A DNA stretch of 24,477 bases, taken from positions 1-24,477 of the forward strand of contig APJZ01000006.1 of NCBI GenBank assembly GCA_000387965.1, given 5' to 3'. This document shows positions 3,001-22,937 of the stretch, one piece after another. The stretch is from Candidatus Nanobsidianus stetteri (GTDB taxonomy: Archaea > Nanobdellota > Nanobdellia > Nanobdellales > Nanobdellaceae). The notes below the pieces were generated by a model. That model was not told the origin of the DNA, ran no database searches, and saw only the letters and a program-made list of their open reading frames with translations. Both the position numbers and the translations under genes were made by a program. Each line of letters starts with the position of its first letter. The stretch's first letter is position 1.

Positions 3001-3755
3001 TCATTTAGTTGTATATTTTCAGTATAATTGTATACGGGATTATATAAAATATCATCCCATGGGGATATTAAAATATTTAATGTAGCATTTGTATTTATAC
3101 TTGAATATATACCAACTGTTAAATTAATATAATTTGAAACACCATATCCGGAAGGCCCACTTAATGAGGAATAATAATATCCTGATGAAGATAATACACT
3201 ACCCCATGTATATAAAGCAGGAGAACTTAAATATGTATCATTTTTAATAATATAAATTTCTGGAACATTATTTGGGTTATTTATATAAAATTCTTGATAT
3301 ACTCCTGGATAATATATAAATGGTAGACCATTTATTTCACTTAAAGGTGTATATAAATATGCAACAATATAATAATATCCGGAAGGTAAATTATCCGGAA
3401 TTGTATAATTTAATGGTATATTTAAAGATTCTCCTGGTTGCAAATATATATTTTTTATTACATATTCATATACTTCATTATCAGATGTAAATTGGAATGG
3501 ATAAATATTATTATTATCATTTTTTTGTATTATTTGTATTACTAATGATGCGTTTGATATATAATAAATATCTCTATAATTTATATAAACATTATAATAC
3601 AATGTTTGACCTACAGATAAATTATTATTCGATAAATTTATACTCAAAAATGTTACTGGTTGATATAAAGATGTTGAATGCCATATATTATACCCCTGAG
3701 AAAAAATTGAATATAGGGAAAATAAAAGAAATGATAATAAATATATCTTTTTCAT
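1..3755 (-). CDS. Very large secreted/surface glycoprotein-like ORF, partial (runs off the left edge, at least 1251 codons). It holds two complete 'signal peptide + ectodomain' modules in one reading frame
   Basis: Hand translation of the minus strand. ATG at 3755-3753 is preceded by an in-frame TGA (3764-3762). The stretches I translated by hand (both ends, the 2142-2291 junction, 1-62) contain no stop; for the rest I rely on the supplied track, which lists no minus-strand ORF here and appears to omit edge-truncated ORFs. N-terminus MKKIYLLSFLLFSLYSIFSQ/GYN looks like a signal peptide. Composition is N/Y/I/S/T-rich with dozens of N-x-S/T sequons. A hydrophobic anchor YYLVILIIFIAIILF (2261-2217) is followed directly by MVLKKKKLFIFVLVLLPLLFNIHSQ/ELY (2216-2142), then a Cys-rich ectodomain with a CARDB/Ig-like stretch GQPSNITIAVQNTGPVPAENI (about 416-478). 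Confidence 0.75.
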   Translation of the reverse strand, partial: MKKIYLLSFLLFSLYSIFSQGYNIWHSTSLYQPVTFLSINLSNNNLSVGQTLYYNVYINYRDIYYISNASLVIQIIQKNDNNNIYPFQFTSDNEVYEYVIKNIYLQPGESLNIPLNYTIPDNLPSGYYYIVAYLYTPLSEINGLPFIYYPGVYQEFYINNPNNVPEIYIIKNDTYLSSPALYTWGSVLSSSGYYYSSLSGPSGYGVSNYINLTVGIYSSINTNATLNILISPWDDILYNPVYNYTENIQLNEGYNIINIPYINVATLNPNAYSLRITLLYNNQTESIYRLRFIVLGPTTRLDGVYLQGNGNLTFIVAPSPDHYTYPVTPNVIAEVYSNTLGFKENIYLGNISWNSTQFTYVNLQLPLNSTSFDLCINLYSNNNLDYAYCTYYILNQSNTYGIPISNLIYVNYTNNYFYICSNISGILNIGYNSESNIIYTTNINNNCLNYTLGSGVYYISFYSSQYSNLWIINNTIQNITTNQTQPINNVQNNYNYSNYYLVILIIFIAIILFMVLKKKKLFIFVLVLLPLLFNIHSQELYLSSNQICTPSDSLNITTQGFNGTVTVSYEFYNSSNPSQIFAIGNYSYLGNITPIYNYTVYFNNLPLNLPNNMNSTIIDYNITVQNCTVSGKNLQLLSCDQYNYTGFIYLNYPYYFEYYTNPIYQGADDAGQIIPGCPSSNNLLNNTYFNFTVILPNGTSVVTRTNCPGSGDPDWGQNLCDLNISNYDNNAGNYIYYGEYYYDNISFNQAFINNPLQVLVASSGEFTTQSCSHGWTISGAYSDSNPLSIQFSYYGPYSGSYYTYYDGIYVLAQNSSVGFNVSSGYNDLCSDGATKSTPPSVSAWLYSSNQYYNTNSFQYVQGISNLPFNFTQYNIDRNTVYNIYPNEGLLVPKGFPSGSSYFTLYNFSVNNAGYYVIYQDYVKTICNNPADYICDADGILCNIGNITGQAEGWLPIYPEPGYYLLVINPNASVYLQNLTYYPYIYNINPGDAIYIGNITNVGVGNLTININWTLPNDPNSSFLLQQQQYSPLYIYFPTDLCQHQDCTINYSVTYQNAYGLTVYNPVTYYGYVNINWDTLNIYTNPSLTQITYGQPSNITIAVQNTGPVPAENISIQNIYYNSSCIQILSTSGQINSLNPNQIGYFNVEINITNLYCSPQDYNITFTIYGWNTYIYNYSIILPISYVISPPNGAQLQSLTTFNIVDKNAQTCYIIFNGAQFSRNCNSDFEYQQSMCAGSLCNTQIQSINNYA

Positions 3756-3780
3756 AAAAATTCATTCATAAAAAATTTTT

Positions 3781-5643
3781 TTAAATCTTCTTACCAGTTG
3801 CAATTTCTATAACTTCATCTATTGTTTTTACAGGTGTTATTTTTATCTTATCAAATAAATCTTCAGGTATATCATTATAATTACCCTCCGGTACTATAAC
3901 TTCTTTTAATTTAGATTCTATTGCAGCTTCTACTTTTGCTATTATACCGCCAACAGGTAATACCTCTCCCCTTATTGATAAAGAACCTGTCATTGCCAAA
4001 TCCTGTCTCACTGGCCAATTCTTTAATGCGGATATTATTGCAGTTGCAACAGTTATTGAAGCTGAATCTCCCTCTACACCTTCATATGTTTGTAAAAATT
4101 GAACATGAACTTTGTATTTCTTCAAATCTTCTCCAAATTTCTTTTTTACTACTGCAGATACATTTACTATTGCCTCTTTTGCAATCTTTCCTAAGTTTCC
4201 AGTAGCAGTAATTTCTCTACCACCCTTTCCAGGTACAACCTCTGCCTCAACAGGTAATACCAATCCTGAATAATATAACCTTGATCCAATTACTGCCAAT
4301 CCATTTACCCTTCCAATTTCATATCCATCAGTTTTTATTATTTGATATTCTTTCCTTCTTTCAATATAATATTTTGATATTTGCTCTTCAATTGTTAATG
4401 CTTTTTCCTTTGCTTCTATAACATCTTCAGGTTCGACATATTTTTTTCCTTTTGACTTTGCAATATCTCCAGCCAATCTTACCAATCCTCCCAAATCTCT
4501 TAATCTTAATGTTAAATAACTTTTTCTTCCAGATCTTCTTTGGGCTTCTCTAATAATTTCTATAACAGCCTCTTTTGTAAAATGTGGTATATTACCTGTC
4601 TTTTTAACTTCTTGCGCTACAAATTGTACAAATTTATTTGCACTTTCTTCTGTAAATAATATTTCAGAATTCATAAATACTTCATATCCATATCCTCTTA
4701 TTCTTGATCTAAATGCTGGATGTAATTTTTCCAATGTTTCCAAATTTCCAGCTGCTACTAATACAAAATCAGCGGGAGCTGGAGTAGTTCTTACCATTGC
4801 ACCAGCAGATCTTTCAGATCTTCCAAATATTGGATATTTCTTTTCTTGTAAAACAGATAATAATTCTATCTGAACCTCTGGTCTTAATGTTCCAATTTCA
4901 TCTATAAACAATACTCCTTTATTTGCCTTATGTATTGCACCAGCAATTACTCTTTGATGTGCTGGAGTTTCAAGACCTCCAGATTGAAATGGATCATGTA
5001 ATACATCTCCAAATAACATACCTTCAAATGCACCTGTAGCATCTACGAATGGTACAGAAGTTCTGTTTGAATTATCTACCAATAATTTTGGTATATTTTT
5101 CATTATTTGCTTTTGCATTACTTGGAAAGAAAATGATATGCTAGCCATTAAAATCATAAATCCGATAAATGTTGCACCGGCCATTATATAATTTCCTTCA
5201 TAGTAAAAGTACATTGGAGTAAATGCTGATATAAGTAATAATAAAATATAGAAATATTGGAAAATTTTTGTTTGTTCCAATACTTTTTTTCTCATTTCTT
5301 CTACAATTTTTTTACCAGTTCCCATTGGTACCGTTTTTATTATTGGTTGATATTCATCATTTGGATTTGGGAATACCAATATATCTTCTAAATTTTTAAC
5401 TTGTTCTTTATCTTCTGATAATATTTCTGCCAATGCTTGTGCTAGCATAGATTTACCAGTACCAGGATCTCCTATTAATAAAACATGCCTCCTCTGTTTA
5501 GCAGCTTTTTTAATTATATCCAATGCCTTATCTTGTCCAATAATTTGCTCTGATATCTTTTCAGGTACATTTATTTCTTCTGTAGTCTTAAATTTGAATA
5601 TACTATATAGATCCTTTATTGATATTATGTTATTTTCGGACAT
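3781..5643 (-). CDS. lonB: Archaeal membrane-bound Lon protease (LonB type)
   Basis: 620 aa. Walker A GDPGTGKS. Two hydrophobic helices are inserted in the AAA+ module ([19 protein letters not shown]..., [18 protein letters not shown]), which is typical of archaeal LonB. C-terminal Lon protease domain with Ser motif [20 protein letters not shown] and downstream Lys ([10 protein letters not shown]). Confidence 0.95.
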
Positions 5644-8671: not shown

Positions 8672-9350
8672 AGATACAGAAATAAGTATAAAATATAAAA
8701 AAGAAGGTTATAATTTTGAAATAATTGTATATTTGAGAAAGGCTTTTGAATACAAAGAAGGAAAAATAAAAGATATAAAGGAAGTATTGGCTGTAGAAGA
8801 AATTTTTAAAGATTCTAAAAAAGGGGAGAGGGCATCAACTGAATCTTTAAAGAAGGTTTTTGGAACTACGAATATTCTTGAAGTTGCTAAACAAATATTG
8901 GAAAATTCCGAAATTCCATTACCTACAGAATATAAAAGAGAATTAATCGAGGAAAAGAAAAAACAGATTATTGAATATATAAGAAAAATAGCATATGATA
9001 GTAAAAATAACATGCCATTAACATATGAAAGAGCAAAAGAATTATTTGAAATTGTAAGATATAATGTAGATATAAATAAACCAGTAGAAAAACAGGCTGA
9101 AGAGGTTTTAAAGGAAATAAGAAAGAAATATCCATTAAAGATAGAATATAAAAATATAAAACTTATAGTATATCCAAATAGATTCAGGATAATTGGAATA
9201 ATAAAAAATAAATATAAAATTATAAAAGAAAATTGGGGTGAAAATTATGAAGCAATATTGGAAATCCCAATCGGATTATTATCGGAATTTTATTCAGATA
9301 TAGGAAAATTATGTGGAGAAGATTGTATAGTTGAAGAAATAAAAAAATAA
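8661..9350 (+). CDS. SBDS/Sdo1-family ribosome maturation protein
   Basis: 229 aa. FEIIVYLRKAFEYKEGKIKDIKEVLAVEEIFKDSKKGERASTESLKKVFGTTNILEVAKQIL matches the SBDS N-terminal (FYSH) domain consensus. Overlaps the psmA end by 11 nt. Conserved position after psmA. Confidence 0.9.
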   Translation: MKDKDTEISIKYKKEGYNFEIIVYLRKAFEYKEGKIKDIKEVLAVEEIFKDSKKGERASTESLKKVFGTTNILEVAKQILENSEIPLPTEYKRELIEEKKKQIIEYIRKIAYDSKNNMPLTYERAKELFEIVRYNVDINKPVEKQAEEVLKEIRKKYPLKIEYKNIKLIVYPNRFRIIGIIKNKYKIIKENWGENYEAILEIPIGLLSEFYSDIGKLCGEDCIVEEIKK

Positions 9351-10019
9351 TTATTGAGATTTTCCCTTATCTCCACCCTGTTTTTCAGACCCTTTTCCAC
9401 CTTCAGAACCGACACCGGTACCGGAAAATATCAAAAATATTCCTATTAGAATAAAAAATATCATTGCAAACAGTATATAAGGATTAAAAGTTATTATATA
9501 ATTTTGTGCCTGTGGAGATGTACCAAAAGTTATTGATAAAAAATACTTTTGATATGCATAATACATAGATAGTAAAGCAAACAAAATAATAAATACTACT
9601 ATTATTATTGGTATATATCTAGCACTACTTGGTTTTCCTTCAGTTGAAAATAATCTTTTTTCTATTACTTCGAATATTTTACCATTCGTTAACAAAGCTC
9701 CTAAAAGTATGAAGAAAAAGAATACTAAAATCATTGATACTACAAAAGCTACAAAATATTGTGTATATGATACAAAACCAGTAAATGTTGTTAACAATAA
9801 TGATGCAGAGATGGATATAATAAATGCTAATGTGCTATTTATATCTTTCTTTGATCCCCCTTCATCTTTCTTTTCTCCTTTTTCACCTGCTTTTACCATA
9901 CTATCCATTAAAAATTTTAATAGAAAATATAATATTCCAAAATAGAATAAAAAAACAAATATTAAATTTATCCCTAATATATTTACTACATTTATTATAA
10001 AATCCGCAAATGATGTCAT
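9351..10019 (-). CDS. Integral membrane protein with G/K/E-rich loop and tail, function unknown
   Basis: 222 aa with about 5-6 hydrophobic segments. Charged loop KAGEKGEKKDEGGSKKD and tail GTGVGSEGGKGSEKQGGDKGKSQ. Lies 33 nt downstream of the glycogen synthase gene on the same strand. Its stop abuts the SBDS stop with 0 nt between them. Confidence 0.6.
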   Translation of the reverse strand: MTSFADFIINVVNILGINLIFVFLFYFGILYFLLKFLMDSMVKAGEKGEKKDEGGSKKDINSTLAFIISISASLLLTTFTGFVSYTQYFVAFVVSMILVFFFFILLGALLTNGKIFEVIEKRLFSTEGKPSSARYIPIIIVVFIILFALLSMYYAYQKYFLSITFGTSPQAQNYIITFNPYILFAMIFFILIGIFLIFSGTGVGSEGGKGSEKQGGDKGKSQ

Positions 10020-10052: not shown

Positions 10053-11672
10053 TTACATAGAATCGTAAATGTTTGTATATTCGTTTATATTATTTTTCCA
10101 ATCAAATTTCTTAGATATTTCATATATTTGCTTCTTTATTTCCATTTTACCATATAAATCCAAATTATAATATTGTAAAAATTTATTATATATAATTTCT
10201 TTATCCAAATTGTTTGGATCTACATTAATTATATATTCATGATTTATGTTTTTACTTATTAGATTTCTATAAAATCCAGTTTTATTAGATAAAACAATTG
10301 GAACAAAATTGTTCAATGCTTCTAATGGTGTATATCCGTAAGGTTCATATCTTGATAAAAATATCCCAAAATCGAATGCTGGTAATATATATTCTGGATC
10401 TAAGCTAAATAAAATATCATTTCCAAGATAAACTGGAACATATATAACTTTTACATAATTATTTTTATCATTATTTAAATTGTTTTCCCTTAATTTTTCA
10501 ATTATAATATTATTTTCTACATCATGAGTACATATTGGTGGATTTTTATTCTTTATCCTATCTAATTTATCCAATATATTTTTTCCATTATATAATGATC
10601 TAATAATTAAATGAATATTTTCTTCTATACTTTCTTTCAATTTTATATACTCTTTATAAGATCTAATTATATCATTATTTTGTCCTTTAATATTATAAGG
10701 AACAAAAATAAATGCAACAGTACTTAATTTCTTTTCATCTAAATATTTCAATAAATCAATAAATAGATCTAAACCCTTATTATATGGTTCGTATCTTCCA
10801 ATTGTATATATTAGCAAATATTTTTCTGGTAAATCATAATATGGATAAAAATACCATGTTAAAATTTCATCTATCCATTTCTTTGAAATTTTATAATAAT
10901 TAAATAATTCTTTTTCTTTTACATTTATGTAATTATAAGTTATATAATCTGGCTTTCTCTTATATATTTTATATGCTTCCTCTCCCAAATTATCAGATAC
11001 TACTGTAAAAATATCAGAATTTAATATTGCCTGTTTTTCCAATTGATATTTTGAATTTACTCCCAATCTATATGAATCCTTATCTGGATCTATTATATCA
11101 AATGCATTCTCTACATTTACATTTTTTTCAGATAATGTTCTTCCAATAACTGTTCCATGAATTGTTAATATTGTTTTATAATTTAGATTATTTTTCTTTA
11201 TATATAATATTGTACCTCCAGATAACCATTCATGCGCATGTAATATTTTTTTCTCATTAAAATATTTATCCAATTTTTCTAAAAATATACCAACAGCAAC
11301 AGACCATAATAATGGCTCATCAAAAGTAAAATCTGAATTTAAAGAATCTATTTTATACCATTCCCAATATTTATATTTCCATAAATTTCTTTCTTTATTA
11401 AAAAATTCATCAAATTCTATCAAAAATACATTTGGTTTTGATTCAATATTCCAATATCCATAATGTACTTTAATTCCATCCAATTGATAATTTATTTCTT
11501 TTATATAATCCGGAGAATCCAATTCTATAAATTCCGAATTATTTTTATAGGGACCAATTAAAAAATACTTATCCTTATATTTTTCCTTTATATATTTTGC
11601 TTTAGTAGATATTACAGTATATATTCCTCCTACTTTATTACATACTTCCCAAGATTGTTCAAACAATATCAT
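10053..11672 (-). CDS. Glycogen (starch) synthase, eukaryote-type GT3 family
   Basis: 539 aa. N-terminus [42 protein letters not shown] closely parallels the animal/fungal glycogen synthase N-terminus as I recall it ([24 protein letters not shown]...DNYFLVGPY). C-terminal [29 protein letters not shown] parallels PSYYEPWGYTPAEC...SGFG. Confidence 0.85.
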   Translation of the reverse strand: [539 protein letters not shown]

Positions 11673-12331
11673 CTAAATAAAATATCAAATATACTTCTTC
11701 TCCTTTTATTACCAGTTATACAATATGCCAGCTCATCTATATATTTTAATGCCTTTGATTTTTCATTATAAAATGCAATTGGTTGATATTGAAATTGATA
11801 TTTAATAAAATCTTTAATTACTGGAATAACTACATATACTTCTTTATTATATACATCCTCTATAAAATCTATTTCAATACTTTTATCATATTTATTTAAT
11901 ACTATCTTAACCTTATTTTTATCTAAAAGATCATATAATTTTTTATTTACATATAAAGAATAAAAGTCTGGATTTATTACTAAAAAATTTATATCTGATA
12001 TTTTCTCAATACTTAATATATAATTTATATTTGGAAGTACATCGAAAATAATTACATCATAATACCTTTTCAAATAATTTAGATCACTGATATTAAAATC
12101 TAAATTATCTATAATTTTTAAATGGAAGTAGGGTAATACTTTTATTCCTTCATATATTTTATTTCCAAATAATTTTTCATTATTTAGAAATATTAAATTT
12201 GAAGAATAAGTACCATTTGTATCTATTATTAATACCTTATAATTATATTCTTTTTTTAAATATGCTGCAAGATTATTAGTCAATGTTGTTTTTCCAACTC
12301 CGCCCTTTAATGATATAAAAGATACTATCAT
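11669..12331 (-). CDS. ParA/MinD-family P-loop ATPase with basic-amphipathic C-terminal tail
   Basis: 220 aa. Deviant Walker A with signature Lys (SLKGGVGKTTL). Walker A' VLIIDTN and Walker B DVIIFDV. C-terminus NKRRRSIFDILFR resembles a MinD-type membrane-targeting helix (compare KGFLKRLFG). ATGA 4-nt overlaps with both neighbours. Confidence 0.85.
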   Translation of the reverse strand: MIVSFISLKGGVGKTTLTNNLAAYLKKEYNYKVLIIDTNGTYSSNLIFLNNEKLFGNKIYEGIKVLPYFHLKIIDNLDFNISDLNYLKRYYDVIIFDVLPNINYILSIEKISDINFLVINPDFYSLYVNKKLYDLLDKNKVKIVLNKYDKSIEIDFIEDVYNKEVYVVIPVIKDFIKYQFQYQPIAFYNEKSKALKYIDELAYCITGNKRRRSIFDILFR

Positions 12332-12642
12332 AATCCTAATAATTTTGAAAATTTTACTTCAGCCTCTTCTTTTGAAAACTTTTTCTTTACATATATTTCA
12401 TGAGCTTTTAAGAAATTTCCTATAATTTTTATATATTCATCCTTATCTTTTGCTTCTTTTATTTTTTCATATAAACTTTCCTCCTTTAATGAATTTTTTA
12501 TCCATTCTGGAAAATGGTTTTTATGATAATTAAATTTATCTTGATCTGCATTGTATAACCAAATTAATAAATCTTGAAGACTATATAATTTTTGTCCATC
12601 AATAGTGATAAATGCTTGTTTTTCATCATCAACTTCAATCAT
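12328..12642 (-). CDS. Small soluble protein, unknown function, first gene of the ParA-GT3 operon
   Basis: 104 aa. Pattern FITIDGQKLYSLQDLLIWLYNADQDKFNYHKNHFPEWIKNSL followed by a K/E-rich helical tail. From memory it resembles a small domain found near GH57/glycosyltransferase genes in other archaea, but I cannot name the family with confidence. TGA stop overlaps the ParA ATG. Confidence 0.55.
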   Translation of the reverse strand: MIEVDDEKQAFITIDGQKLYSLQDLLIWLYNADQDKFNYHKNHFPEWIKNSLKEESLYEKIKEAKDKDEYIKIIGNFLKAHEIYVKKKFSKEEAEVKFSKLLGL

Positions 12643-12679
12643 ATTAAATTTTATATTGTTATATCTTTAAAAGATATTT
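12643..12679. promoter_or_regulatory. 37-bp divergent spacer with two interdigitated TATA-like boxes (ParA-GT3 operon / GH57)
   Basis: TTTTATAT (12649-12656) is centred 27.5 nt from the + ATG (12680). TTTAAAA (12666-12672) is centred 27 nt from the - ATG (12642). Confidence 0.35.
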
Positions 12680-13855
12680 ATGACAGGCATTGTATTTTAT
12701 TTCCATGCACATCAACCAAGAAGAATAAGATATTATTCCTTTTTTGATATTGGATCGAAAAATTATTTCAACGATGATCTAAATAAGAGAATATTAGATA
12801 GGGTTGTACATAAATGTTATAAACCGGCATTAGAAATGATATATGATAATATTATAAAATACGATATAAAAGTATCATTTTCAATTTCTGGAACATTAAT
12901 TGAGCAATTAGAACTATATCATCCAGAAATTTTAGAATTATGGAAAAAATTAGTAGATACTGGAAATGTAGAAATTGTATCAGAAACATACTATCATTCA
13001 TTGGCATATTTAATTGATAAAGATGAATTTATTAACCAAATAAAATTGCATAGAAAGAAAATAAAGGAAGTATTTAATTATAAATCTAAAAGCTTTAGAA
13101 ACTTTGAACTTGTATTTAACAATGAAATAGGAGAAATTGTATATTCTTTAGGATATAAAGTTGCATTAACTGAAGGAACTGAAAAAATTTTGGGAAATAG
13201 AAGTCCAAATTATGTATATAAATTAAAAATAAATAATTTAAGATTATTATTGAGAAATTATAGATTATCTGATGATATAGGATTTAGATTTACAAATAAA
13301 AATTGGTCAGAATATCCATTAACTGCAGATAAATATTATTTATGGTTAAAGAGCACTCCAGGAGATATAATAAATATATTCATGGACTTTGAAACAATTG
13401 GAGAACATATATGGAAAGAATCTGGAATATTTGAATTTTGGAATAAGTTATTTGAATATATTGGAAAAGAAAAATATTTTGAAACATACAATATAACCGA
13501 AGCTTCAGAAGAGTTAGATTATAAAGATGAATTAGATATTCCTGAATTAATATCATGGGCAGATATTGAGAGAGATCTATCTGCATGGATTGGAGATAGT
13601 ATACAAAGAGAAGCATTAGATTATTTGAGAGAATTATATAAAAAATATAAGAATGATGGAAAAATATTAAATATATTGAGATATTTATCAACTTCAGATA
13701 ACTTTTACTATATGAGTTTAAAATATAATAGCGATGGAGATGTACATAAATATTTTAGGGAAGAAGCTTTTGCAACTCCATATGATTCTTTTATATCCTA
13801 TATGAATATTTTAAAAGATTTAGAATTAAATGAGACTATTGAAAATAGAAATTAA
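12680..13855 (+). CDS. Glycoside hydrolase family 57 enzyme (alpha-amylase, 4-alpha-glucanotransferase or branching-enzyme class; specificity unresolved)
   Basis: 391 aa. GH57 conserved regions: FHAHQP (region I), GNVEIVSETYYH (II), an E-containing FELVFNNE (III, candidate nucleophile), FMDFETIGEH (IV, candidate acid/base Asp) and LSTSDNFYYM (V). Confidence 0.8.
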   Translation: MTGIVFYFHAHQPRRIRYYSFFDIGSKNYFNDDLNKRILDRVVHKCYKPALEMIYDNIIKYDIKVSFSISGTLIEQLELYHPEILELWKKLVDTGNVEIVSETYYHSLAYLIDKDEFINQIKLHRKKIKEVFNYKSKSFRNFELVFNNEIGEIVYSLGYKVALTEGTEKILGNRSPNYVYKLKINNLRLLLRNYRLSDDIGFRFTNKNWSEYPLTADKYYLWLKSTPGDIINIFMDFETIGEHIWKESGIFEFWNKLFEYIGKEKYFETYNITEASEELDYKDELDIPELISWADIERDLSAWIGDSIQREALDYLRELYKKYKNDGKILNILRYLSTSDNFYYMSLKYNSDGDVHKYFREEAFATPYDSFISYMNILKDLELNETIENRN

Positions 13856-15022
13856 TTTTTCTACAGAATTTTTCCAAGATAAATTTTTTATATCATCTAA
13901 ACATAATTTTATCTCATATTCTCCCAATTTTGGATAAGATAGCAATGCTAATATATAATCCGCCATTTTATTTACATCCCAAAAATCAACTGCCAATGCG
14001 TTTTTTAATACTTCATATACACCTGTTTGTTTTGATATTATAATAAAGTCTTTATATTTTAAAGCTTCAAATGGTGTTAAACCAAAAGGTTCTGATATGG
14101 ATGGCAAAACAAATATATCCGCTATTGAATATAAATATTCTGCTAGATCGTCATCAACCCATCCTGTAAATATTACATTTTTTGATATATTTAAATCTGC
14201 AGCCATTTTTATTAATTGTTCTAACATTTCTCCGGTTCCTGCAAATATAAATAATACATCCTTTCTTTTTTCTAAAACTCTTTTAGCCGCTCTTAATAAA
14301 TAATCTGGACCCTTATGCATTGTCATTCTCCCAAGATATAATACTATTTTATATTTTTCTTTTATTTTACTATTTATTTTTTCTTTTATACTAAAATCAT
14401 CATCCGGAGCATTATATATTACATCAATTTTATTTTCATCACAATTATAATATTTTACCAATATATCTTTCTCTCTTTTACTTACTACTACAATCTTATC
14501 TGCATATTTACAAGCTTCCAACTCTATTCCATAATCATAATCATATAAATATTTTAATACATCTGGATTTCCTCCAACTCTATCATATACCAAAGAATGA
14601 AAATGAATAACCAATGGTTTTTTGTATATTTTCTTTATTTCTATACCTGCTAAAGCAGTTAACCAATCATATGCATATATAATATCAAAATCTAATTTCA
14701 TTTTCTTTAATATATCTAATATTCTATCTTTATATTCAATTACTGCTTTTTTATAGTCTATAATTTTTCTTTTATATAATGTAAAAGATCCATATTTAAA
14801 ATAATCTATATATGATTGATATAATTTCATATTTAATCCGAAGATTTTTGAATTCTTTAATTTATTATTCCAAAAGGATTTTACATCATCGGTCAAGTTT
14901 AAAATAAATAAATAAACAACATTATTAAAATAATCAAGATATTTTAAATAATAATATGTTACTTTTTCCAATCCACCACCTTTTTGAGGAAATACTCCCC
15001 ATGATAAAAATAGTATTTTCAT
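13826..15022 (-). CDS. GT-B glycosyltransferase, GT4/GT5 (GlgA-like) family
   Basis: 398 aa. N-terminus MKILFLSWGVFPQKGGGLEKV resembles archaeal GlgA (E-x-PP-x-KVGGL). C-terminal nucleotide-sugar motif PSISEPFGLTPFEALKYK. The 3' end overlaps the convergent GH57 3' end by 30 nt. Confidence 0.8.
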   Translation of the reverse strand: MKILFLSWGVFPQKGGGLEKVTYYYLKYLDYFNNVVYLFILNLTDDVKSFWNNKLKNSKIFGLNMKLYQSYIDYFKYGSFTLYKRKIIDYKKAVIEYKDRILDILKKMKLDFDIIYAYDWLTALAGIEIKKIYKKPLVIHFHSLVYDRVGGNPDVLKYLYDYDYGIELEACKYADKIVVVSKREKDILVKYYNCDENKIDVIYNAPDDDFSIKEKINSKIKEKYKIVLYLGRMTMHKGPDYLLRAAKRVLEKRKDVLFIFAGTGEMLEQLIKMAADLNISKNVIFTGWVDDDLAEYLYSIADIFVLPSISEPFGLTPFEALKYKDFIIISKQTGVYEVLKNALAVDFWDVNKMADYILALLSYPKLGEYEIKLCLDDIKNLSWKNSVEKLISIFNSLI

Positions 15023-15073
15023 AATTAAAAGATAAATAAAAATGATTATAAATCTTTTAACAAAAATATTTGT
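15023..15073. promoter_or_regulatory. 51-bp divergent spacer with a central palindromic TTATAA (GT4/5 / debranching enzyme)
   Basis: TTATAA at 15046-15051 is 26.5 nt from the - ATG (15022) and 25.5 nt from the + ATG (15074). Confidence 0.3.
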
Positions 15074-16678
15074 ATGGAAAAGGAAATTGAATTAGAAAAT
15101 TTTGATTATGCTATTATAAATAATAAAGGATCCTTTTTGTTTTTACCTTTACTATATAACAGTAGATATTTTGGTTTATTACAATATTATAATAACAATT
15201 TTATCAAAATAATAGAAAAGATAGAAAATAGGGATATAAATTATAGTGAAATTGAAAAGATAATATTAAAGGATTATAATGATTTAAAAATAATTTATAA
15301 AAATGGATGGGAAGAATATAAATTAATAGATAATAAATTAATATATAAAACAAATAAATATTCTACTTTGAATGTTTATTTTGATATAAGATATTTATAT
15401 GATATAGATGAATGGGGAAGGATATATAATAATGAAAAAAATAAGGATTATGTAAAGATAAAATTTAATAAAGGCGATTTAAATTATGAAGTAATAATAA
15501 AGGGATTTGAGATTTATCAAGAATTAAATAAATGGATGAAGGTAAATTATAATTATGATTTATATAGAAAATCTCCCCCATTTGAAAGATATATATATTT
15601 ACCATTTTCTTTTTATGCAAAGGAATTGGAAATAATATATAAAAATGATAAGGAAAATTTAAATGGAAAGAATTTAATTGAAAATAGATTATTATCCTTT
15701 ATTTATGATAATAACATTTCTGCAGGTTTTCCATGGTATTTTCAGGAATGGAGTAGAGATTTGTTAATTTCATTAAAGGGATTATATTATATTAATAAAG
15801 ATATTGTAAAGAATAAGTTAATTGAATATTCAAATTATTTTTTACTAGATGGAAGATTAAAAAATATAAAAAATGAAAATGTTGGTAATTCTGATGGGAT
15901 TGGATTGTATATTTTTAGATTATTTCAATTTAAAGATTTGTTTGAAAAAGAAATATTTGACAAATTAATAAATAATATAATTGAAAAGTTAAAATTATTT
16001 GAAGAAAATTATTTAGATGAAAAATTATTTTTATTTAAAGCATATCAAAATGAAACATGGATGGATACATTAAATAGAATTTATCCAATAGAAATACAAT
16101 TCTTAATGGCAAATGCATATGATAATTTATATAATTATACAAAGAAAGATGAATATAAAGAAAAATTGGAAAAAATAAGAAATTCAATTAGAAAGAATTA
16201 TTTATCAGATTATTCTTTATATGATGATATAAAAAATAAAAAGATAAGATGCAATGTATTTTTATCCTATTATTTTTATCCAAAGATCTTTTCAAATTAT
16301 GAGTGGGAAAATATTTTTGATTATTCATTAACTCATTTATATCTAAAATGGGGAGGAATTAGTAGTTTATCTATATTTGATAAAGAATTTATTCCATATA
16401 GTAATGAAGATAATTATTTTAAAAATGAAGGAAAGTCAATGCATAATGGAGATTCATGGATTTTTATAAACAACATTGCTGCTATTGATTTATATAATTT
16501 AAATAAAGAAAAATATGGAAATATAATAAATAGTATTTTAAAATCTAATGAAAGATTGATAAAAATGATAGGAACATTACCAGAAAGATCTAGCGCATAT
16601 GAGTTAAAACCAGCAGGGGCTCTACATCAACTATGGTCAATATCAACTTATATAGAATTATTAAATAATATAAAATAA
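15074..16678 (+). CDS. Amylo-alpha-1,6-glucosidase / glycogen debranching enzyme (GDE C-terminal family)
   Basis: 534 aa. Motifs GFPWYFQEWSRDLLISLKGL (compare G-x-PWF-x-x-WGRDT), ETWMDT, HNGDSWIF and LPERSSAYELKPAGALHQLWSIS (compare GC-x-x-QAWS) fit the (alpha/alpha)6 GDE_C fold. Confidence 0.75.
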   Translation: MEKEIELENFDYAIINNKGSFLFLPLLYNSRYFGLLQYYNNNFIKIIEKIENRDINYSEIEKIILKDYNDLKIIYKNGWEEYKLIDNKLIYKTNKYSTLNVYFDIRYLYDIDEWGRIYNNEKNKDYVKIKFNKGDLNYEVIIKGFEIYQELNKWMKVNYNYDLYRKSPPFERYIYLPFSFYAKELEIIYKNDKENLNGKNLIENRLLSFIYDNNISAGFPWYFQEWSRDLLISLKGLYYINKDIVKNKLIEYSNYFLLDGRLKNIKNENVGNSDGIGLYIFRLFQFKDLFEKEIFDKLINNIIEKLKLFEENYLDEKLFLFKAYQNETWMDTLNRIYPIEIQFLMANAYDNLYNYTKKDEYKEKLEKIRNSIRKNYLSDYSLYDDIKNKKIRCNVFLSYYFYPKIFSNYEWENIFDYSLTHLYLKWGGISSLSIFDKEFIPYSNEDNYFKNEGKSMHNGDSWIFINNIAAIDLYNLNKEKYGNIINSILKSNERLIKMIGTLPERSSAYELKPAGALHQLWSISTYIELLNNIK

Positions 16679-17727: not shown

Positions 17728-19095
17728 ATGTGGAATAGGATTATTATTAATAGTTATTTAAACCATAAGGATAATATTTTATCTGCTATTATTATTGATT
17801 TAGTTGATAATAAATACTTAATAAAAGAAAATTATTTACAAATAATTGCAGGAAACTTTAAGATTTTAATAAGCAAAATGTTCTTAAACATTAAAAAAAT
17901 AATTAGATCTTTAATAATTGTTTATACACGACATAGACATCATAGAAATCATAATAGATTTCATAGGCATAAGCACTGGTATGATGATGATTATTATTAT
18001 AATAATGTAAGTGGGAGCAAACCTAAGAGAAGTAGAATTATTAAAATTATTGCTCGTATCATAATAATTTCATTAATAATACTTATAGTCATTTATAATC
18101 CATCATATATAAAACAAATATTAAAAACTTTACAAACAAGCATTAACAATATTTCAACAACTATACAATCAGCAATCTTATCCACACAACCTACAATAAA
18201 TTCAACATGGGTTTTCCAATTCTTTAACATTGTAAATCAATATAGACAATCAACTGGTGCTCCACCATTGCAATATTGTCCTTGGCTAGATAATTATGCT
18301 CATATTAGATTCGAAACAATGATTCAGAACCCAGAAATAAGTCATTATGGTTTTGATCAAGACTTTAATGAATACTTTAGTCAATATCAAGATTTATTAG
18401 TCAGTGAGGAAGTATTATATCCAGATGGATATACACCAGATGAATATGTACAGGATATGCAATCAGAGGCCCCAATTCATTGGGAAGGTTTATTAGATTC
18501 TAATTACACATATTATGGATATTATATCGGTTATGGACCAACCTATGCAATTATTGGTTCATGTCCAGTAACTGAAATAGTGGGATCAGTAAATGTACCA
18601 CAATACTTCCAATCTTATGGATGTTCAGTGGAACTTGAAAATAGTACTTGGTTAGTAATTGAATTGAGTAACTGGTGCAGTGGACCTACAACAATTACAG
18701 TTTCAACGATTAATGAAGATCTTTCTCCTCAATATTATATATACTTACCAATACAATATAATTTACCAACAAATGAAGAATATGTAAAATTAGTCGTAAA
18801 TATTACATCAACAAGTCCTGTTGAATTATTTTTATTCACACCAGATCAATTTACTTACTTTGAAAGTTTATACCAACAAGAAGCATGGTCATTTACAGGA
18901 CCTGCATATTATTATGGTGGTATATCAACAACATTTAACACTGAGATTACATTAAATACATATCAATTAGCTAATGGTGGCTATTATTTAGTAATTAGCA
19001 ATGTACTTCCGGATGCTCAATATACATACGTAAATGGTAACATAACAATTGTATATACACCAACAACACCAAATATATTATCCAACAATAAATAA
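17728..19095 (+). CDS. Type-II membrane-anchored protein: His/Arg-rich cytoplasmic segment, one TM helix, extracellular CAP/SCP(YkwD)-like domain, C-terminal beta-rich domain
   Basis: 455 aa. YTRHRHHRNHNRFHRHKHWYDDDYYY (aa 66-91). TM IIKIIARIIIISLIILIVIY (aa 104-123). CAP-like pattern FFNIVNQYRQSTGAPPLQY...LDNYAHIRFETM...SHYGF...EEVLY...IHWEGLLDSNYTYYGYYIGYG. C-terminal module SPVELFLFTPDQF...GGYYLVISN...ITIVYTP. The true start Met is uncertain (an alternative is M51). Confidence 0.6.
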   Translation: MWNRIIINSYLNHKDNILSAIIIDLVDNKYLIKENYLQIIAGNFKILISKMFLNIKKIIRSLIIVYTRHRHHRNHNRFHRHKHWYDDDYYYNNVSGSKPKRSRIIKIIARIIIISLIILIVIYNPSYIKQILKTLQTSINNISTTIQSAILSTQPTINSTWVFQFFNIVNQYRQSTGAPPLQYCPWLDNYAHIRFETMIQNPEISHYGFDQDFNEYFSQYQDLLVSEEVLYPDGYTPDEYVQDMQSEAPIHWEGLLDSNYTYYGYYIGYGPTYAIIGSCPVTEIVGSVNVPQYFQSYGCSVELENSTWLVIELSNWCSGPTTITVSTINEDLSPQYYIYLPIQYNLPTNEEYVKLVVNITSTSPVELFLFTPDQFTYFESLYQQEAWSFTGPAYYYGGISTTFNTEITLNTYQLANGGYYLVISNVLPDAQYTYVNGNITIVYTPTTPNILSNNK

Positions 19096-19170: not shown

Positions 19171-20016
19171 ATGAAGGCCCAAAGATTATACCTAGTTGGA
19201 TTGATCATTTTAATTTTACTAGTTTCTATATCTATAGCAATATTTTTTATGAATTACACACAACAAACAGGTCTTGAACTTGCGAATCTTGAAATTACAA
19301 ACCTTAAAAATAATTATACAAATCTACAAAACCAATACAAAGCATTACAAATGCAATTCAGCATTATTGAATCTAATTATGAAAATCTAAAAACAAATTA
19401 TACAAACTTACAAAATATATATCAAAATTTACAATCTCAATATGAATCTTTACAAAACAATTACTCAATACTTCAAACCAACTATACAAATTTACAGGAT
19501 CAATATCAAGTATTACAATCTCAATATAATACACTTGAATCAAACTATCAAAATTTAGAAACAAATTATACAAATTTACAAAATATGTATCAAAATTTAC
19601 AATCTCAATATAAATCTTTACAAGAACAATACAGTAATTTAAATAATACTTATTGGAATATATTAACATTTTTAGGTAATGGAAACAATAGCGCTATATT
19701 ACAACCCAATCAATTTATATATAAAGAAATAGCTATACCAACTGGCTTCTCAGGAACAATAAACATAATGATATCTTCATCAAATCCCATAGAAGTGTTT
19801 GTATTTGATCTATATAATTTAATACAAGCTATTGAAGGTAACCCATATGGATACTATTTATATAACAATGGAACATATATAAATACAAGTGTTACTCTAG
19901 GACCTGGATTTTACATAGTATTTATCTATAACCCAAACAATACAACAGAAGCTACGTTATCATATGAAATAACAACAATATATACAACAGCTCCAAAATT
20001 ATTAACAAATAAATAG
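19171..20016 (+). CDS. Type-II anchored coiled-coil stalk protein (Tyr/Leu heptads) with C-terminal beta-rich head domain
   Basis: 281 aa. N-terminal anchor LYLVGLIILILLVSISIAIFFM. Aa 49-165 form 17 uninterrupted heptads with an aromatic residue (16 Y, 1 F) at one core position and L/I three residues later. C-terminal module SNPIEVFVFDLYN...GPGFYIVFIYNPNN...ITTIYTT is paralogous to the C-terminus of the upstream gene. Confidence 0.75.
   Translation: MKAQRLYLVGLIILILLVSISIAIFFMNYTQQTGLELANLEITNLKNNYTNLQNQYKALQMQFSIIESNYENLKTNYTNLQNIYQNLQSQYESLQNNYSILQTNYTNLQDQYQVLQSQYNTLESNYQNLETNYTNLQNMYQNLQSQYKSLQEQYSNLNNTYWNILTFLGNGNNSAILQPNQFIYKEIAIPTGFSGTINIMISSSNPIEVFVFDLYNLIQAIEGNPYGYYLYNNGTYINTSVTLGPGFYIVFIYNPNNTTEATLSYEITTIYTTAPKLLTNK
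19315..19665 (+). repeat. Coding 21-bp periodic repeat (heptad array) with 84-bp super-period; includes two about 91%-identical 87-bp copies at 19369-19455 and 19537-19623
   Basis: Direct reading gives recurring tay-nnn-nnn-tta-caa units. I aligned the two 87-bp segments by hand and found about 8 mismatches; they lie 168 bp (8 heptads) apart. The repeat is entirely inside the 19171-20016 CDS. Confidence 0.85.
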
Positions 20017-20155
20017 ACCTTGAAATTTTTAATATTTCAAATTAGTTTTGGATGAAAATATATCTTTATGATATCAAATTATAATAATATATCATTTTCA
20101 TAAATTAAATTTCTCAGTAGATAAATTTATATTTTAAAAACAATAAAATATTAAA

Positions 20156-20746
20156 ATGATAATAAACTATGGGATACAGGAATATTTGTTTCTTTTTATA
20201 ATATCGGAAATAATAGTTGGATTAGTATTGCCATTTATTATAATAAAAGAAGAAAGAGAGAAGATAATAGAATTAAAATTATATTCTTTGGTAGGTTTTA
20301 TATTATATGTACTTGTTGGAATGACATTTATAGTAATATTAGCATCAATAGATTATTATTATAATTTCTCGCTATTTAATTATAATTTAGGTTATTATAT
20401 TGGATTTATATTATTTATAATAGGAATAATATTACAAGGTATTGCTGAAGCAACCCTTGGAAAATATTATTTACCATCTATTGGAACTGTTGAAGGTCAA
20501 AAAATAGTTAAGGATGGTATATACAAATATATAAGACATCCAGGATATTTAGGAGAAATAATAATATTTTTTGGACTTGGATTTGTAACATATAGTCTAT
20601 TAGGAATATTGGGAGCCTTTATTGTATCATTAATGGTATATGTTGGAGAAGTAATTCCAGAAGAAAAATATATGTTGGAAAAGTTTGGAAAGGAATATGA
20701 AGAATATATGAAAGAAACTTTTAGATTTATTCCATATATATTTTAA
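20156..20746 (+). CDS. Isoprenylcysteine carboxyl methyltransferase (ICMT) / phospholipid methyltransferase family membrane protein
   Basis: 196 aa with about 5 TM segments. C-terminal signature GIYKYIRHPGYLGEIIIFFG...EEKYMLEKFGKEYEEYMKETFRFIPYIF matches the family pattern (RHP-x-Y, EE-x-x-L-x-x-FG-x-x-Y-x-x-Y). Confidence 0.85.
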   Translation: MIINYGIQEYLFLFIISEIIVGLVLPFIIIKEEREKIIELKLYSLVGFILYVLVGMTFIVILASIDYYYNFSLFNYNLGYYIGFILFIIGIILQGIAEATLGKYYLPSIGTVEGQKIVKDGIYKYIRHPGYLGEIIIFFGLGFVTYSLLGILGAFIVSLMVYVGEVIPEEKYMLEKFGKEYEEYMKETFRFIPYIF

Positions 20747-20840: not shown

Positions 20841-22937
20841 TTAGTATAAAATAAGTAATATTGCCACCATTATTCCAATTACTCCTCCGACCAATAATCC
20901 AATATTTAAATAATTATATTGAACTATTTTATTGAATTGTATAACAATATTTAAAGGTTGATTTACAATATAATTATACCCATTTTCATAATAAATTGTG
21001 TTATAAAAGAATCCCGGATAAATATATTTTGATGGTAAAATATTTATTATAGTTCCATTATTTAGAAAGATAGAAGCATTTCCATAAGTATTTACAGAAT
21101 TATTTATAGAAACATTTACTAAGAATGGTGTATTAATATTTACTAGATATTGTAAATAGCAATAATCAGATATATTAATACTTTCTGATGTATTTATATT
21201 TAATGTTATATTATTTGGACAATAATATTGATAATTTCCGAAATTATATATTTGATTTAAGTAAATATTCAATAAATTATTTGCATAAAGGTAATATGTA
21301 TTATTATAGTATGTTTCATTTAGATAATTTCCAGAAATAGTAAAATCTATGCCAATGCTATCATTTATAGTAACTAGATAATATTCTGTATAGTTTGTAG
21401 AAATATTATAATTATTATTTACTGGCAAACTTATATTAACATAATGTTTAGAATAATCAATATTATAATTTTCTTCATTTATTGTTAAATTATTTAGTAG
21501 ATATAATGTATCGTTTTGGTAAATATATATTGGAATATTTATATTAAAAATTGTCCCAAATGGATATTGATAATTTATATATGAATTATTGTAAGAATAA
21601 TAAACTGATATATTATAATTTAAAGGGGTTGTACTTCCCAAATATTCTGGATAAAAGTTACCTGTAGATAAACTTACATATCCTTGAGATATTATATTTT
21701 CATTAATATTTGAAGAATCTTCTGCTGTGTTAATTCCATAATTAAATATTGAAGGATCTAAAGTAAGATATTGATTATTATATAAATAATATAAGCCTAA
21801 ATAACCACTAATATTGTTTATATCTATACAAGTTCCATATCCAGGCCCACCAACAACTAATTCTAAATCTTCTATATTATTAGAGTTTGTAACGTACGGG
21901 GAAATAACTATATTACCATGTGATGGAATTAATAATGTAACATTATCATACCAATATATATTTTGTCCATCAAAACTATACCCAAATTGTATTTCCGGAT
22001 AAGAATTATTTTGGGTAATATTAATTATTAAATATACATTTAATGGATATTGTAGAACAAAGTTATTTGTTTCGTATGAATAAAACGTGTCGAGACCATA
22101 ATTATTTACCATTCCATTACCATTAATTAAATCACCTGAAATATAAGAATTTGATAAAATAAGTATATTAGATGAATAAGAATTTTCTGAAGTAAAATTC
22201 CATATATTATCAACAAAATCAAAATATCCACCAGTATTATTTATTAATAAAACATTTTGTAACCAATAATATTGATCATTACTTAATTCTAAGACTGCAT
22301 TTAATTGTATAGAACCGGAATCTTCTCCTACAAAATTATTAGAACATGAAGGATCAACATATGAACTGAAATTATTTAAATAAACACCCCCAACAACTTC
22401 GTTTGTTATAATATAATATCCATAAATATTTCCATTATTAATATATATGCCATAATCAGAAATTCCTATTGGAGAATAAATAACATTTTCAGTTTGATTT
22501 GTTAAACTGTATGTAAAATAATAATATGCGTTTTGTACATTATTATTGTAAATTACTACATAATAATTTCCTGAAGGTAAATATATACTTTGGTTTATAT
22601 AATTTGTATATTCCTGATAACTTGCATTGAAGTTTCCAAAAAATTGAAGATTTAGATAATCTTGTTGGTCCATTATATAAAAAGATAAAGGAATTGATGA
22701 ATTAAAATATATGTTTAAATATTGATTTGATGAATATATTGGGTAAGAAAAATAATATGAAGGATATAAAATATAAAAATCTCCATAAGATCCTTGTCCA
22801 AGATTATATAGATTCAATTGACTTATATTTATAGAATTTATTGGAATATTAAACAATGTTGATGAATAATTTTGTGAGTATGTATTAAAAAAATTAAATA
22901 TTAGAGTTAATAATGCAAATAGTTTTAATTTATTCAT
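20841..22937 (-). CDS. Thermopsin-like (peptidase family A5) surface protein with signal peptide, extra N- and C-terminal domains and a C-terminal TM anchor
   Basis: 698 aa. Signal peptide MNKLKLFALLTLIFNFFNTYSQ/NYS. A series of motifs parallels Sulfolobus thermopsin as I recall it: PIGISDYGIY (PAGIASFGLY), SIQLNAVL (TLQFNIVL), YWLQNV (YWLQDV), FVDNIWNFT (FIDNVWNLT), LELVVGGPGYG (AELVWGGGGNG), LGLYYLYN (LGLYYISN), YGINTAEDS (FGADTAEAA). C-terminal anchor LLVGGVIGIMVAILLILY. Very high N-x-S/T density. Confidence 0.75.
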   Translation of the reverse strand: MNKLKLFALLTLIFNFFNTYSQNYSSTLFNIPINSINISQLNLYNLGQGSYGDFYILYPSYYFSYPIYSSNQYLNIYFNSSIPLSFYIMDQQDYLNLQFFGNFNASYQEYTNYINQSIYLPSGNYYVVIYNNNVQNAYYYFTYSLTNQTENVIYSPIGISDYGIYINNGNIYGYYIITNEVVGGVYLNNFSSYVDPSCSNNFVGEDSGSIQLNAVLELSNDQYYWLQNVLLINNTGGYFDFVDNIWNFTSENSYSSNILILSNSYISGDLINGNGMVNNYGLDTFYSYETNNFVLQYPLNVYLIINITQNNSYPEIQFGYSFDGQNIYWYDNVTLLIPSHGNIVISPYVTNSNNIEDLELVVGGPGYGTCIDINNISGYLGLYYLYNNQYLTLDPSIFNYGINTAEDSSNINENIISQGYVSLSTGNFYPEYLGSTTPLNYNISVYYSYNNSYINYQYPFGTIFNINIPIYIYQNDTLYLLNNLTINEENYNIDYSKHYVNISLPVNNNYNISTNYTEYYLVTINDSIGIDFTISGNYLNETYYNNTYYLYANNLLNIYLNQIYNFGNYQYYCPNNITLNINTSESINISDYCYLQYLVNINTPFLVNVSINNSVNTYGNASIFLNNGTIINILPSKYIYPGFFYNTIYYENGYNYIVNQPLNIVIQFNKIVQYNYLNIGLLVGGVIGIMVAILLILY

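Follow-up and report, generated by a model that had tools for sequence, protein, structure and literature searches.

A sequon-bearing candidate Tyr/Leu coiled-coil stalk of Nanobsidianus stetteri, encoded beside a CAP-domain membrane protein and shared with Vulcanisaeta, Caldivirga and Thermocladium

A gene of Candidatus Nanobsidianus stetteri (contig APJZ01000006.1; the 24,477-nucleotide stretch analyzed is referred to as the window) encodes a 281-residue protein (19171..20016, plus strand, stop codon included) that appears to be a surface stalk of an unusual kind. With moderate confidence, the protein is interpreted as an extracellular, membrane-anchored, parallel coiled coil that has a Tyr/Leu core and glycosylation sequons in a fixed register, displays a β-sandwich module at a height that depends on how many heptads there are, and works together with the CAP-domain membrane protein encoded directly upstream. 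What was observed or computed comprises the sequence pattern with its conservation and the purifying selection on it, the helix and fold as predicted, and the pairing of the two genes with its distribution. The gene itself is supported by the list of open reading frames (ORFs), by 111 homologues and by ratios of nonsynonymous to synonymous substitution (dN/dS) of 0.14–0.46 against orthologues. The window is archaeal and very AT-rich (GC content 0.20–0.28), and encodes TFIIB, the proteasome α subunit, LonB, a thermopsin and a cluster of glycogen genes.

The defining feature of the stalk protein is a run of 17 consecutive aromatic residues spaced exactly seven residues apart (Tyr at aa 49, 56, 70, 77 and onward to 161; Phe at aa 63), each followed three residues later by Leu (15 of 17) or Ile (aa 66 and 164); this pattern of 16 Tyr and one Phe was described in the initial annotation and was reproduced by script. 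Through L35 and I42 the register reaches two heptads further toward the N-terminus, giving 19 heptads in a single register (aa 35–167; 19273..19674, plus strand), with L168 as the next a residue. Position a is thus occupied by Leu, Ile, and then 16 Tyr and one Phe, and position d by Leu or Ile, so that the 19 heptads show the canonical coiled-coil pattern of hydrophobic residues at both a and d in an unbroken repeat. Position e is mostly Gln and position g mostly Gln or Asn; Asn accounts for 20% of the segment as a whole, Gln and Leu for 16% each, and Tyr for 12%. When aa 28–170 were shuffled 20,000 times, the longest aromatic run of period 7 was 7, compared with the 17 observed. At the DNA level, Tandem Repeats Finder reports a period-84 array of 3.0–3.7 copies with 70% matches. 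Two 87-bp copies noted previously are present (19369..19455 and 19537..19623, plus strand) and are 90.8% identical, although their offset is 168 bp, or eight heptads, rather than 84 bp. A 98-residue ORF on the minus strand (19373..19669) lies wholly within the heptad repeat and most likely arises from the repeat itself, the reverse complement of which contains few stop codons.

The full-length AlphaFold2 model, built from a 29-sequence alignment, comprises a membrane helix (aa 2–25), a single unbroken α-helix (aa 31–169; 19261..19677, plus strand) and a β-sandwich head; the long helix would span about 20 nm if coiled. Averaged over 10-residue blocks, the predicted local distance difference test (pLDDT) of this helix is 62 for aa 31–40, 78–94 for aa 41–150, 76 for aa 151–160, and 80 for aa 161–170. 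The models agree with the earlier proposal of a continuous helical stalk that joins an N-terminal membrane anchor to a folded C-terminal head. A β-helix or amyloid-like structure, as might be read into a 28-residue super-period, is contradicted by single-heptad insertions and deletions and by the predicted helix. At the N-terminus (aa 1–27; 19171..19251, plus strand), a hydrophobic stretch of about 21 residues follows K2 and R5, an arrangement read from the sequence as a signal anchor that would place the N-terminus inside and the C-terminus outside the cell; an uncleaved anchor is preferred because a cleaved Sec signal would have a shorter hydrophobic stretch. A comparison of N-termini by eye found no class III (pilin) cleavage motif conserved in the homologues: the stalk protein begins M-K-A-Q-R-L-Y, and the homologues carry K-I-Y, K-A-Y or N-A-Y, as against the FlaFind rule of [KR][GA][ALIFQMVED] followed by a hydrophobic run. 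A type IV pilin-like identity, suggested by the JGI name 'PilE' of two relatives, was rejected on the lack of this motif.

The Tyr/Leu register is conserved throughout the family. A search of 5.8 billion proteins yielded the 111 relatives. Of their heptads, 89% carry Tyr at a, 92% Leu at d, and 52% Gln at e, and Gln or Asn predominates at g; loss of the register in homologues, which the initial annotation had named as grounds for abandoning a coiled-coil stalk, was thus not seen. Relatives also occur on DNA of 47–59% GC (the chromosome of Pyrobaculum sp. WP30, a contig carrying PaREP1 and AFOR, and contig L010), and the same a/d pattern is found there, so AT-bias cannot explain it. In comparisons with five nanoarchaeal orthologues, for which dS was 0.5–1.2 or saturated, dN/dS was 0.02–0.06 at the stalk a and d positions, 0.19–0.39 at other stalk positions and 0.21–0.46 in the head. 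Close orthologues carry 6, 9, 10, 18 or 19 heptads and always differ by whole heptads, with no stutter or stammer, in keeping with the length polymorphism in repeat units that had been anticipated; repeat collapse in short-read assemblies could exaggerate the variation. A scan of a genome collection gave only four loci, the back-translated search pattern being narrow; it located orthologues in Nanopusillus sp. RSNP5 and Nanobsidianus stetteri, and two of the four loci (Heimdallarchaeota and Bathyarchaeia) match the heptads alone. Exact-sequence look-ups of two Vulcanisaeta relatives (P0042 of Vulcanisaeta sp. EB80 and P0159 of Vulcanisaeta JCM 14467) returned no contig on record. Heptad-only matches of 29–51% identity were observed in metagenome-assembled genomes (MAGs) of a Heimdallarchaeota (L008, 846–1256) and a Bathyarchaeia member (L009, 558–704), a hint, from sequence similarity, that this type of stalk reaches beyond Thermoproteota and Nanoarchaeota.

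Sequons are distributed along the stalk in register with its core. The four N-Y-T sequons listed previously are present on the plus strand at N48 (19312..19320), N76 (19396..19404), N104 (19480..19488), and N132 (19564..19572), with Asn at g directly before the core Tyr at a and Thr at b. To these are added N28 (NYT), N97 (NYS; 19459..19467, in the N-Y-T register), N158 (NNT; 19642..19650), N172, N233, N238, and N256. N158, with Asn at e, lies in the stalk/head junction motif L-N-N-T-Y-W-N-I-L-T-F-L-G, and its sequon (L-N-N-T-Y-W) is kept in nearly all relatives with this head. The exact 28-residue sequon period reported in the initial annotation holds in this gene, where it stems from recent 84/168-bp duplication, but it is no rule of the family: N-[YFH]-[ST] motifs are spaced by 7, 14, 21, 28 and 35 residues in 28, 57, 51, 61, and 13 instances, respectively, and the period is therefore regarded as a by-product of the gene's own four-heptad super-repeat. 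Asn at g is coupled to Ser or Thr at b in five subfamilies, with odds ratios of 3.4–315 and p-values of 3e-3 to 1e-13; these counts are not independent events, since heptads are copied as units, and yet the coupling holds across very distant lineages. Among 74 diverse representatives of the wider class of stalks described below, sequons stand at g in 121 cases, at e in 54, and at c in 14, about twice the expectation under positional independence. The coupling and the enrichment together support selection for N-Y-T placed so that its Asn directly precedes the core Tyr. Surface glycosylation in this group of organisms is indicated by the binding of wheat-germ agglutinin to N. acidilobi cells (PMC4935971).

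The C-terminal head (aa 170–275; 19678..19995, plus strand) matched no Pfam family even at expectation values (E) up to 1; modeled alone by AlphaFold2, it forms a β-sandwich with a pLDDT of 90.7 and a predicted template-modeling score (pTM) of 0.82. Foldseek aligns it, at template-modeling (TM) scores of 0.5–0.7 and E of 1e-4 to 1e-3, with the GOLD domains of p24/TMED and SEC14L proteins, with pre-peptidase C-terminal (PPC)/collagen-binding domains and with the carbohydrate-binding modules CBM4 and CBM6. The GOLD folds score TM 0.55–0.71 at E of about 1e-4, and the PPC and CBM4/6 folds match equally well; as modeled, the head is a generic binding-type jelly roll. The p24 GOLD domain gives the best fold matches (TM 0.58 by query length, 0.71 by target length), and p24/TMED proteins likewise combine a β-sandwich, a coiled coil and a single membrane helix; however, they arrange these in inverted order, share at most about 12% identity with the stalk protein, have no Pfam match in common with it, and belong to the eukaryotic secretory pathway rather than to an archaeon. 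A search of viral folds gave weak, generic β-sandwich matches only, bar one protein of an uncultured archaeal virus (A0A1S5Y2Z2 in BFVD; 196 aa, labeled 'Prefoldin'), which matches the head at TM 0.61 and 14% identity and may share the helix-plus-sandwich build.

Directly upstream of the stalk gene, a 455-residue membrane protein (17728..19095, plus strand) carries a CAP domain at aa 167–271 (Pfam CAP, 27.8 bits against a cut-off of 21.1). Its C-terminal domain (about aa 352–448; 18781..19071, plus strand) is related to the stalk head, as detected by BLASTP (E 0.025) and by hhalign (probability 81.6%, E 1.1e-5, 83 columns), for which the CAP part served as a control and gave 0.5%. Adjacent CAP and stalk genes recur in the nanoarchaeal contigs L012 (1670–3903), L013 (1461–3290) and L014, in L010 (4249–6696) and in the Thermocladium contig L015 (6001–8444), so that the pair (17728–19095 and 19171–20016 in the window) spans nanoarchaeal contigs of 24–27% GC and Thermocladium/Vulcanisaeta-like contigs of 42–47% GC. 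Within the predicted cytoplasmic N-terminal tail of the CAP protein, a His/Arg-rich run was observed at about aa 68–84 (17929–17980; RHRHHRNHNRFHRHKH), which could be a metal- or nucleic-acid-binding patch; Tandem Repeats Finder marks a 9-bp tandem repeat in the same gene at 17932–17953.

Beyond the Nanoarchaeota, the cassette has a narrow distribution. The CAP family has 57 matches among the 5.8 billion proteins, and its named members come only from Nanoarchaeota, Vulcanisaeta (including the isolate JCM 14467), Caldivirga, and Thermocladium. Nor is the stalk protein peculiar to ectosymbionts: genomes of the Vulcanisaeta, Thermocladium and Caldivirga types encode proteins with this architecture and head. 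The CAP proteins of the window and L010 share 58% identity over 439 aa, far higher in the extracellular part, and the stalk proteins of the window and Thermocladium share 53%; identities of 53–58% or more across the symbiont/Thermoproteales divide suggest horizontal transfer between putative hosts and symbionts. In midpoint-rooted neighbor-joining trees, the AT-rich nanoarchaeal sequences form shallow clades within deeper Thermoproteales-like branches, a nesting that suggests transfer into the Nanoarchaeota; by this measure the cassette probably entered the nanoarchaeal lineage from the Vulcanisaeta/Caldivirga/Thermocladium family, a direction read from the trees. L010 is a Thermoproteales-like contig of 47% GC with an integrase (1–410) and a resolvase (8951–9613), and the 419-kb L015 carries, in order, tRNA-Leu, an integrase, DUF996, the CAP gene, a 96-aa ORF, the stalk gene and a HEPN/nucleotidyltransferase pair; there tRNA-Leu and the integrase (3283–4777) lie about 1.2 kb 5′ of the cassette, with one unrelated gene between. 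Toxin-antitoxin genes are also found near the cassette in these contigs, and together with tRNA-Leu, integrase and resolvase they form what is, by gene content, a signature of an integrative mobile element. Thermocladium, Caldivirga and Vulcanisaeta have been proposed as hosts of Nanoarchaeota, and a Thermocladium host bin was reported to share two adjacent hypothetical genes, at 74–83% identity, with Nanoarchaeota of clade 2 (Jarett et al., 2018; PMC6142677). The cassette may correspond to the unannotated transferred genes of Table S9 in that study, listed as IMG genes Ga0197779_10717/10718 and Ga0197781_101711/101712, identifiers that could not be matched to it.

Two known systems resemble the stalk. 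In a profile search of all solved-structure sequences, the top two matches were a Helicobacter pylori α-1,3-fucosyltransferase (FucT; 5ZOI) and the SlaB protein of Sulfolobus acidocaldarius (8QOX chain B); the sequence matches included no Tyr/Leu zipper of this type with a solved structure. The heptads of the H. pylori α-1,3/4-fucosyltransferases FutA and FutB (DDLRVNY, or DD/NLRV/INY) place Tyr at a, Leu at d, and Asn at g, in the same register as the stalk (E 1.5e-7). They are reported to mediate dimerization and to act as a molecular ruler in 2–17 copies (PMC2583950), and copy number varies by whole heptads in both systems (6–19 in the stalk orthologues). In contrast to the stalk, the FucT heptads are bacterial, charged (Asp, Arg), nearly identical from copy to copy and without a role for sequons, and they are attached to a GT10 fucosyltransferase catalytic domain; by Pfam, the stalk protein has no glycosyltransferase domain. 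Crystallization of FucT required deletion of the C-terminal 115 residues, and the heptads are absent from its crystal structures (PMC6785251); 5ZOI was accordingly set aside as a view of Tyr/Leu packing.

SlaB, from a thermoacidophilic archaeon, matches the stalk weakly (E 0.002), and convergence is possible. It forms a trimeric stalk with a helix of 132 residues that bears 6 of its 14 predicted sequons (PMC10903991). On the predicted structure and the profile alignment, the two proteins have in common a membrane-anchored coiled-coil helix of about 130–140 residues, β-sandwich domain(s), an uncharged Asn/Gln/Ser/Thr surface and Leu at d, and their sequon registers coincide, N-I-T in SlaB corresponding to N-Y-T (Asn at g) and L-N-S-S to L-N-N-T (Asn at e). 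A polar coiled-coil stalk studded with sequons therefore has a precedent in thermoacidophilic archaea. SlaB differs in having Ile, Leu or Val rather than Tyr at a, in its partner SlaA, and in its C-terminal anchor and three Ig-like domains, where the stalk protein has an N-terminal anchor and a single C-terminal jelly-roll head. The stalk departs from the SlaB precedent in using Tyr throughout position a, in being anchored at its N-terminus and in carrying a small head.

Stalks of this kind are widespread. A stalk-only search of 1.84 billion cluster representatives retrieved 1,511 proteins at E ≤ 1e-3 and 196 at E ≤ 1e-10; of the best 145 new representatives, 104 contain at least 6 uninterrupted [Y/F/H/W]xx[L/I/M/V] heptads and 66 at least 10, the longest run being 31. 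At least 74 mutually distant protein clusters carry 8–31 Tyr/Leu-type heptads, an N-terminal hydrophobic segment is present in 44 of the 74 diverse representatives, and His replaces Tyr at a in about 11% of heptads of the wider class. The view that a Tyr/Leu core is unusual is thus upheld against textbook coiled coils, but the motif is not rare, given these clusters and the register shared with FucT. Names sampled for 20 clusters included two archaeal organisms and one crayfish. Ignisphaera aggregans A0A7C4FHD9 (30 heptads) and Zestosphaera tikiterensis PUA32860.1 (26 heptads), both uncharacterized, have an N-terminal anchor, uninterrupted [Y/F/H]xxL heptads and in-register sequons; their head, unlike the β-sandwich of the stalk protein, is transglutaminase-like, and transglutaminase-like Pfam domains also appeared among the matches of the first homologue search. 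Judged by these domain combinations, the Tyr/Leu stalk is an interchangeable module with different heads. Pipeline labels of class members (prefoldin, FlaC, ZapB, SbcC, TOPRIM nuclease) are coiled-coil cross-matches. The literature search for 'tyrosine zipper' together with 'coiled' gave no result.

Of the other readings considered, a nanoarchaeal S-layer anchor or pseudo-periplasmic spacer like SlaB, in which the stalk would fix the distance from membrane to S-layer and the head would dock a lattice protein, is unlikely. The SlaB coiled coil is the second-best solved-structure match, with the same heptad and sequon register; the helices are similar in length (132 aa in SlaB, 139 aa in the stalk protein), and both are polar, sequon-rich stalks joined to β-sandwich domains. 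An anchor at the N-terminus rather than the C-terminus and one small jelly-roll head in place of three Ig-like domains speak against it, as do the range of 6 to 19 heptads among close relatives and the lack of any SlaA-like lattice gene in the 24,477-nt window; the Thermocladium stalk gene, moreover, lies about 3 kb 3′ of a tRNA and an integrase, a position that fits an accessory gene better than a core envelope gene. That context is what commends a different origin, as cargo of a mobile element or virus later fixed in nanoarchaeal chromosomes, the product being an envelope attachment spike or a protein for surface exclusion. The surroundings of the cassette in L010 and L015 include genes for integrase, resolvase and toxin-antitoxin systems, and in L015 a tRNA-Leu directly precedes the integrase; the combination of an N-terminal anchor, coiled-coil stalk and C-terminal head resembles that of type II viral attachment proteins, and the best viral fold match is the 196-aa archaeal virus protein (TM 0.61). 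No relative was found, however, on 2.9 million IMG/VR viral contigs, PHROG matches were to generic coiled coils only, and in nanoarchaeal chromosomes the gene lies in conserved synteny with no integrase, so this origin is judged to be improbable.

Two further readings carry very little weight. A cytoplasmic coiled-coil protein of the prefoldin, ZapB or FlaC type is suggested by JGI names among the homologues (prefoldin, ZapB, FlaC, PilE) and by a Pfam HALZ match of 35.2 bits, above its cut-off of 28.1, but HALZ and similar matches are confined to the heptads, the stalk protein has no homeobox, and ZapB and the others fall below their cut-offs; this reading is highly improbable given the conserved hydrophobic N-terminal anchor, the in-register enrichment of sequons and the attached β-sandwich head. 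Dozens of whole-protein matches to coiled-coil families (HALZ, Spc7, ZapB, and tape-measure proteins, from Pfam, PHROGs and solved structures) were likewise dismissed as heptad cross-matches, and a match to the C-terminal domain (CTD) of RNA polymerase II reflects only the occurrence of Tyr every seven residues. The remaining reading, a compositional or repeat artifact of a 24% GC genome in which a tandem repeat drifts without structural role, might appeal to the extreme AT-richness of the genome, to the AT-rich codons of Asn, Tyr, Ile and Lys, and to the recent 84/168-bp duplications in the gene. It is effectively refuted, and next to nothing is left of its probability: the a/d register persists at 47–59% GC, the indels are all of whole heptads, and dN/dS at a/d is 0.02–0.06 with dS at 0.5–1.2.

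Several observations weigh against the preferred reading of an oligomeric stalk acting with the CAP protein. The AlphaFold2 helix was modeled as a monomer and is no proof of a coiled coil; Asn at g flanks the core, where a glycan could hinder tight packing; and the roughly threefold variation in stalk length among close relatives argues against a fixed spacing role. The fold matches of the head are weak (at most 18% identity, E 1e-4 to 1e-3) and name no ligand. The nanoarchaeal contig L001 has no CAP gene between its AAA-HTH and PEMT genes, and in L006 the CAP position is taken by two ORFs (337 and 130 aa), possibly a split gene; the CAP–stalk partnership is therefore not obligatory. With regard to transfer, the neighbor-joining trees are crude and without support values, and the known host of N. 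stetteri is a member of the Sulfolobales, which weakens a simple story in which the cassette matches the host.

On the preferred interpretation, the stalk protein would span the membrane once, keep its N-terminus within the cell and form, outside, a parallel homo-oligomeric coiled coil of about 19 heptads and about 20 nm. Its core would be built from Tyr at a and Leu at d, and its surface from uncharged Asn, Gln, Ser and Thr; by analogy, FucT and SlaB offer a dimer and a trimer as precedents for the number of chains. The sequons, in a fixed register with Asn either at g before the core Tyr or at e, could be glycosylated by the archaeal oligosaccharyltransferase as the chain emerges. The rod would hold the β-sandwich module of about 105 residues off the membrane at a height set by heptad number, and would act with the upstream CAP-domain protein, itself predicted to end in a β-sandwich related to the head; their two-gene cassette belongs to a narrow family that terrestrial Nanoarchaeota share with Vulcanisaeta, Caldivirga and Thermocladium. 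Oligomerization, glycosylation and a binding function are thus properties that we infer for the stalk protein. A more speculative extension, to which only a low probability is assigned, is that a surface-recognition cassette borne by integrative elements of Vulcanisaeta, Thermocladium and Caldivirga was captured by terrestrial Nanoarchaeota and serves in the symbiont–host tether or recognition device, the related β-sandwiches binding each other or a shared glycan of the host surface and the heptad number tuning the reach across both cell envelopes.

In nanoarchaeal chromosomes the conserved neighbors of the stalk gene include genes for glycogen metabolism, for methyltransferases and for thermopsin. 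Between nanoarchaeal lineages, the stalk gene and a PEMT/ICMT-like methyltransferase gene change places (window 19171–20746 versus L001 5348–6840, L006 2760–5810 and L007 127–1638). A thermopsin-family acid protease of 698–761 aa is encoded directly 3′ of the cassette (20841–22937, minus strand, in the window; L006 5913–8198, L007 1764–4040, L013 4165–6441). Adjoining the cassette in the window is a glycogen/sugar cluster (10053–16678) that includes glycogen synthase, GH57, a GT4 glycosyltransferase and a debranching-enzyme-like gene; it recalls the proposal for N. acidilobi that gluconeogenesis and glycogen metabolism feed surface glycosylation (PMC4935971).

Glycosylated coiled-coil stalks are known in kind, and what is new lies in the all-tyrosine a-layer and the uncharacterized family of heads, together with the conserved CAP–stalk pairing, the related C-terminal domains of its two members and the restriction of the pair, beyond Nanoarchaeota, to Vulcanisaeta, Caldivirga and Thermocladium. 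Natural stalks with Tyr at nearly every a position over 8–31 heptads make up a distinct, recurrent and apparently unnamed class from hot and often acidic habitats; such Tyr/Leu stalks could underlie stability in heat and at low pH, and are possible scaffolds for design. The module looks like a general way to show varied heads, β-sandwich or transglutaminase-like, at a set height above the membrane. The Tyr/Leu motif is less singular than it first looked, yet the class to which it belongs is undescribed, and the shared cassette, almost exclusive to Nanoarchaeota and the family of their suspected hosts, offers a concrete target for the study of this symbiosis: a testable candidate for host interaction or for host-derived surface mimicry.

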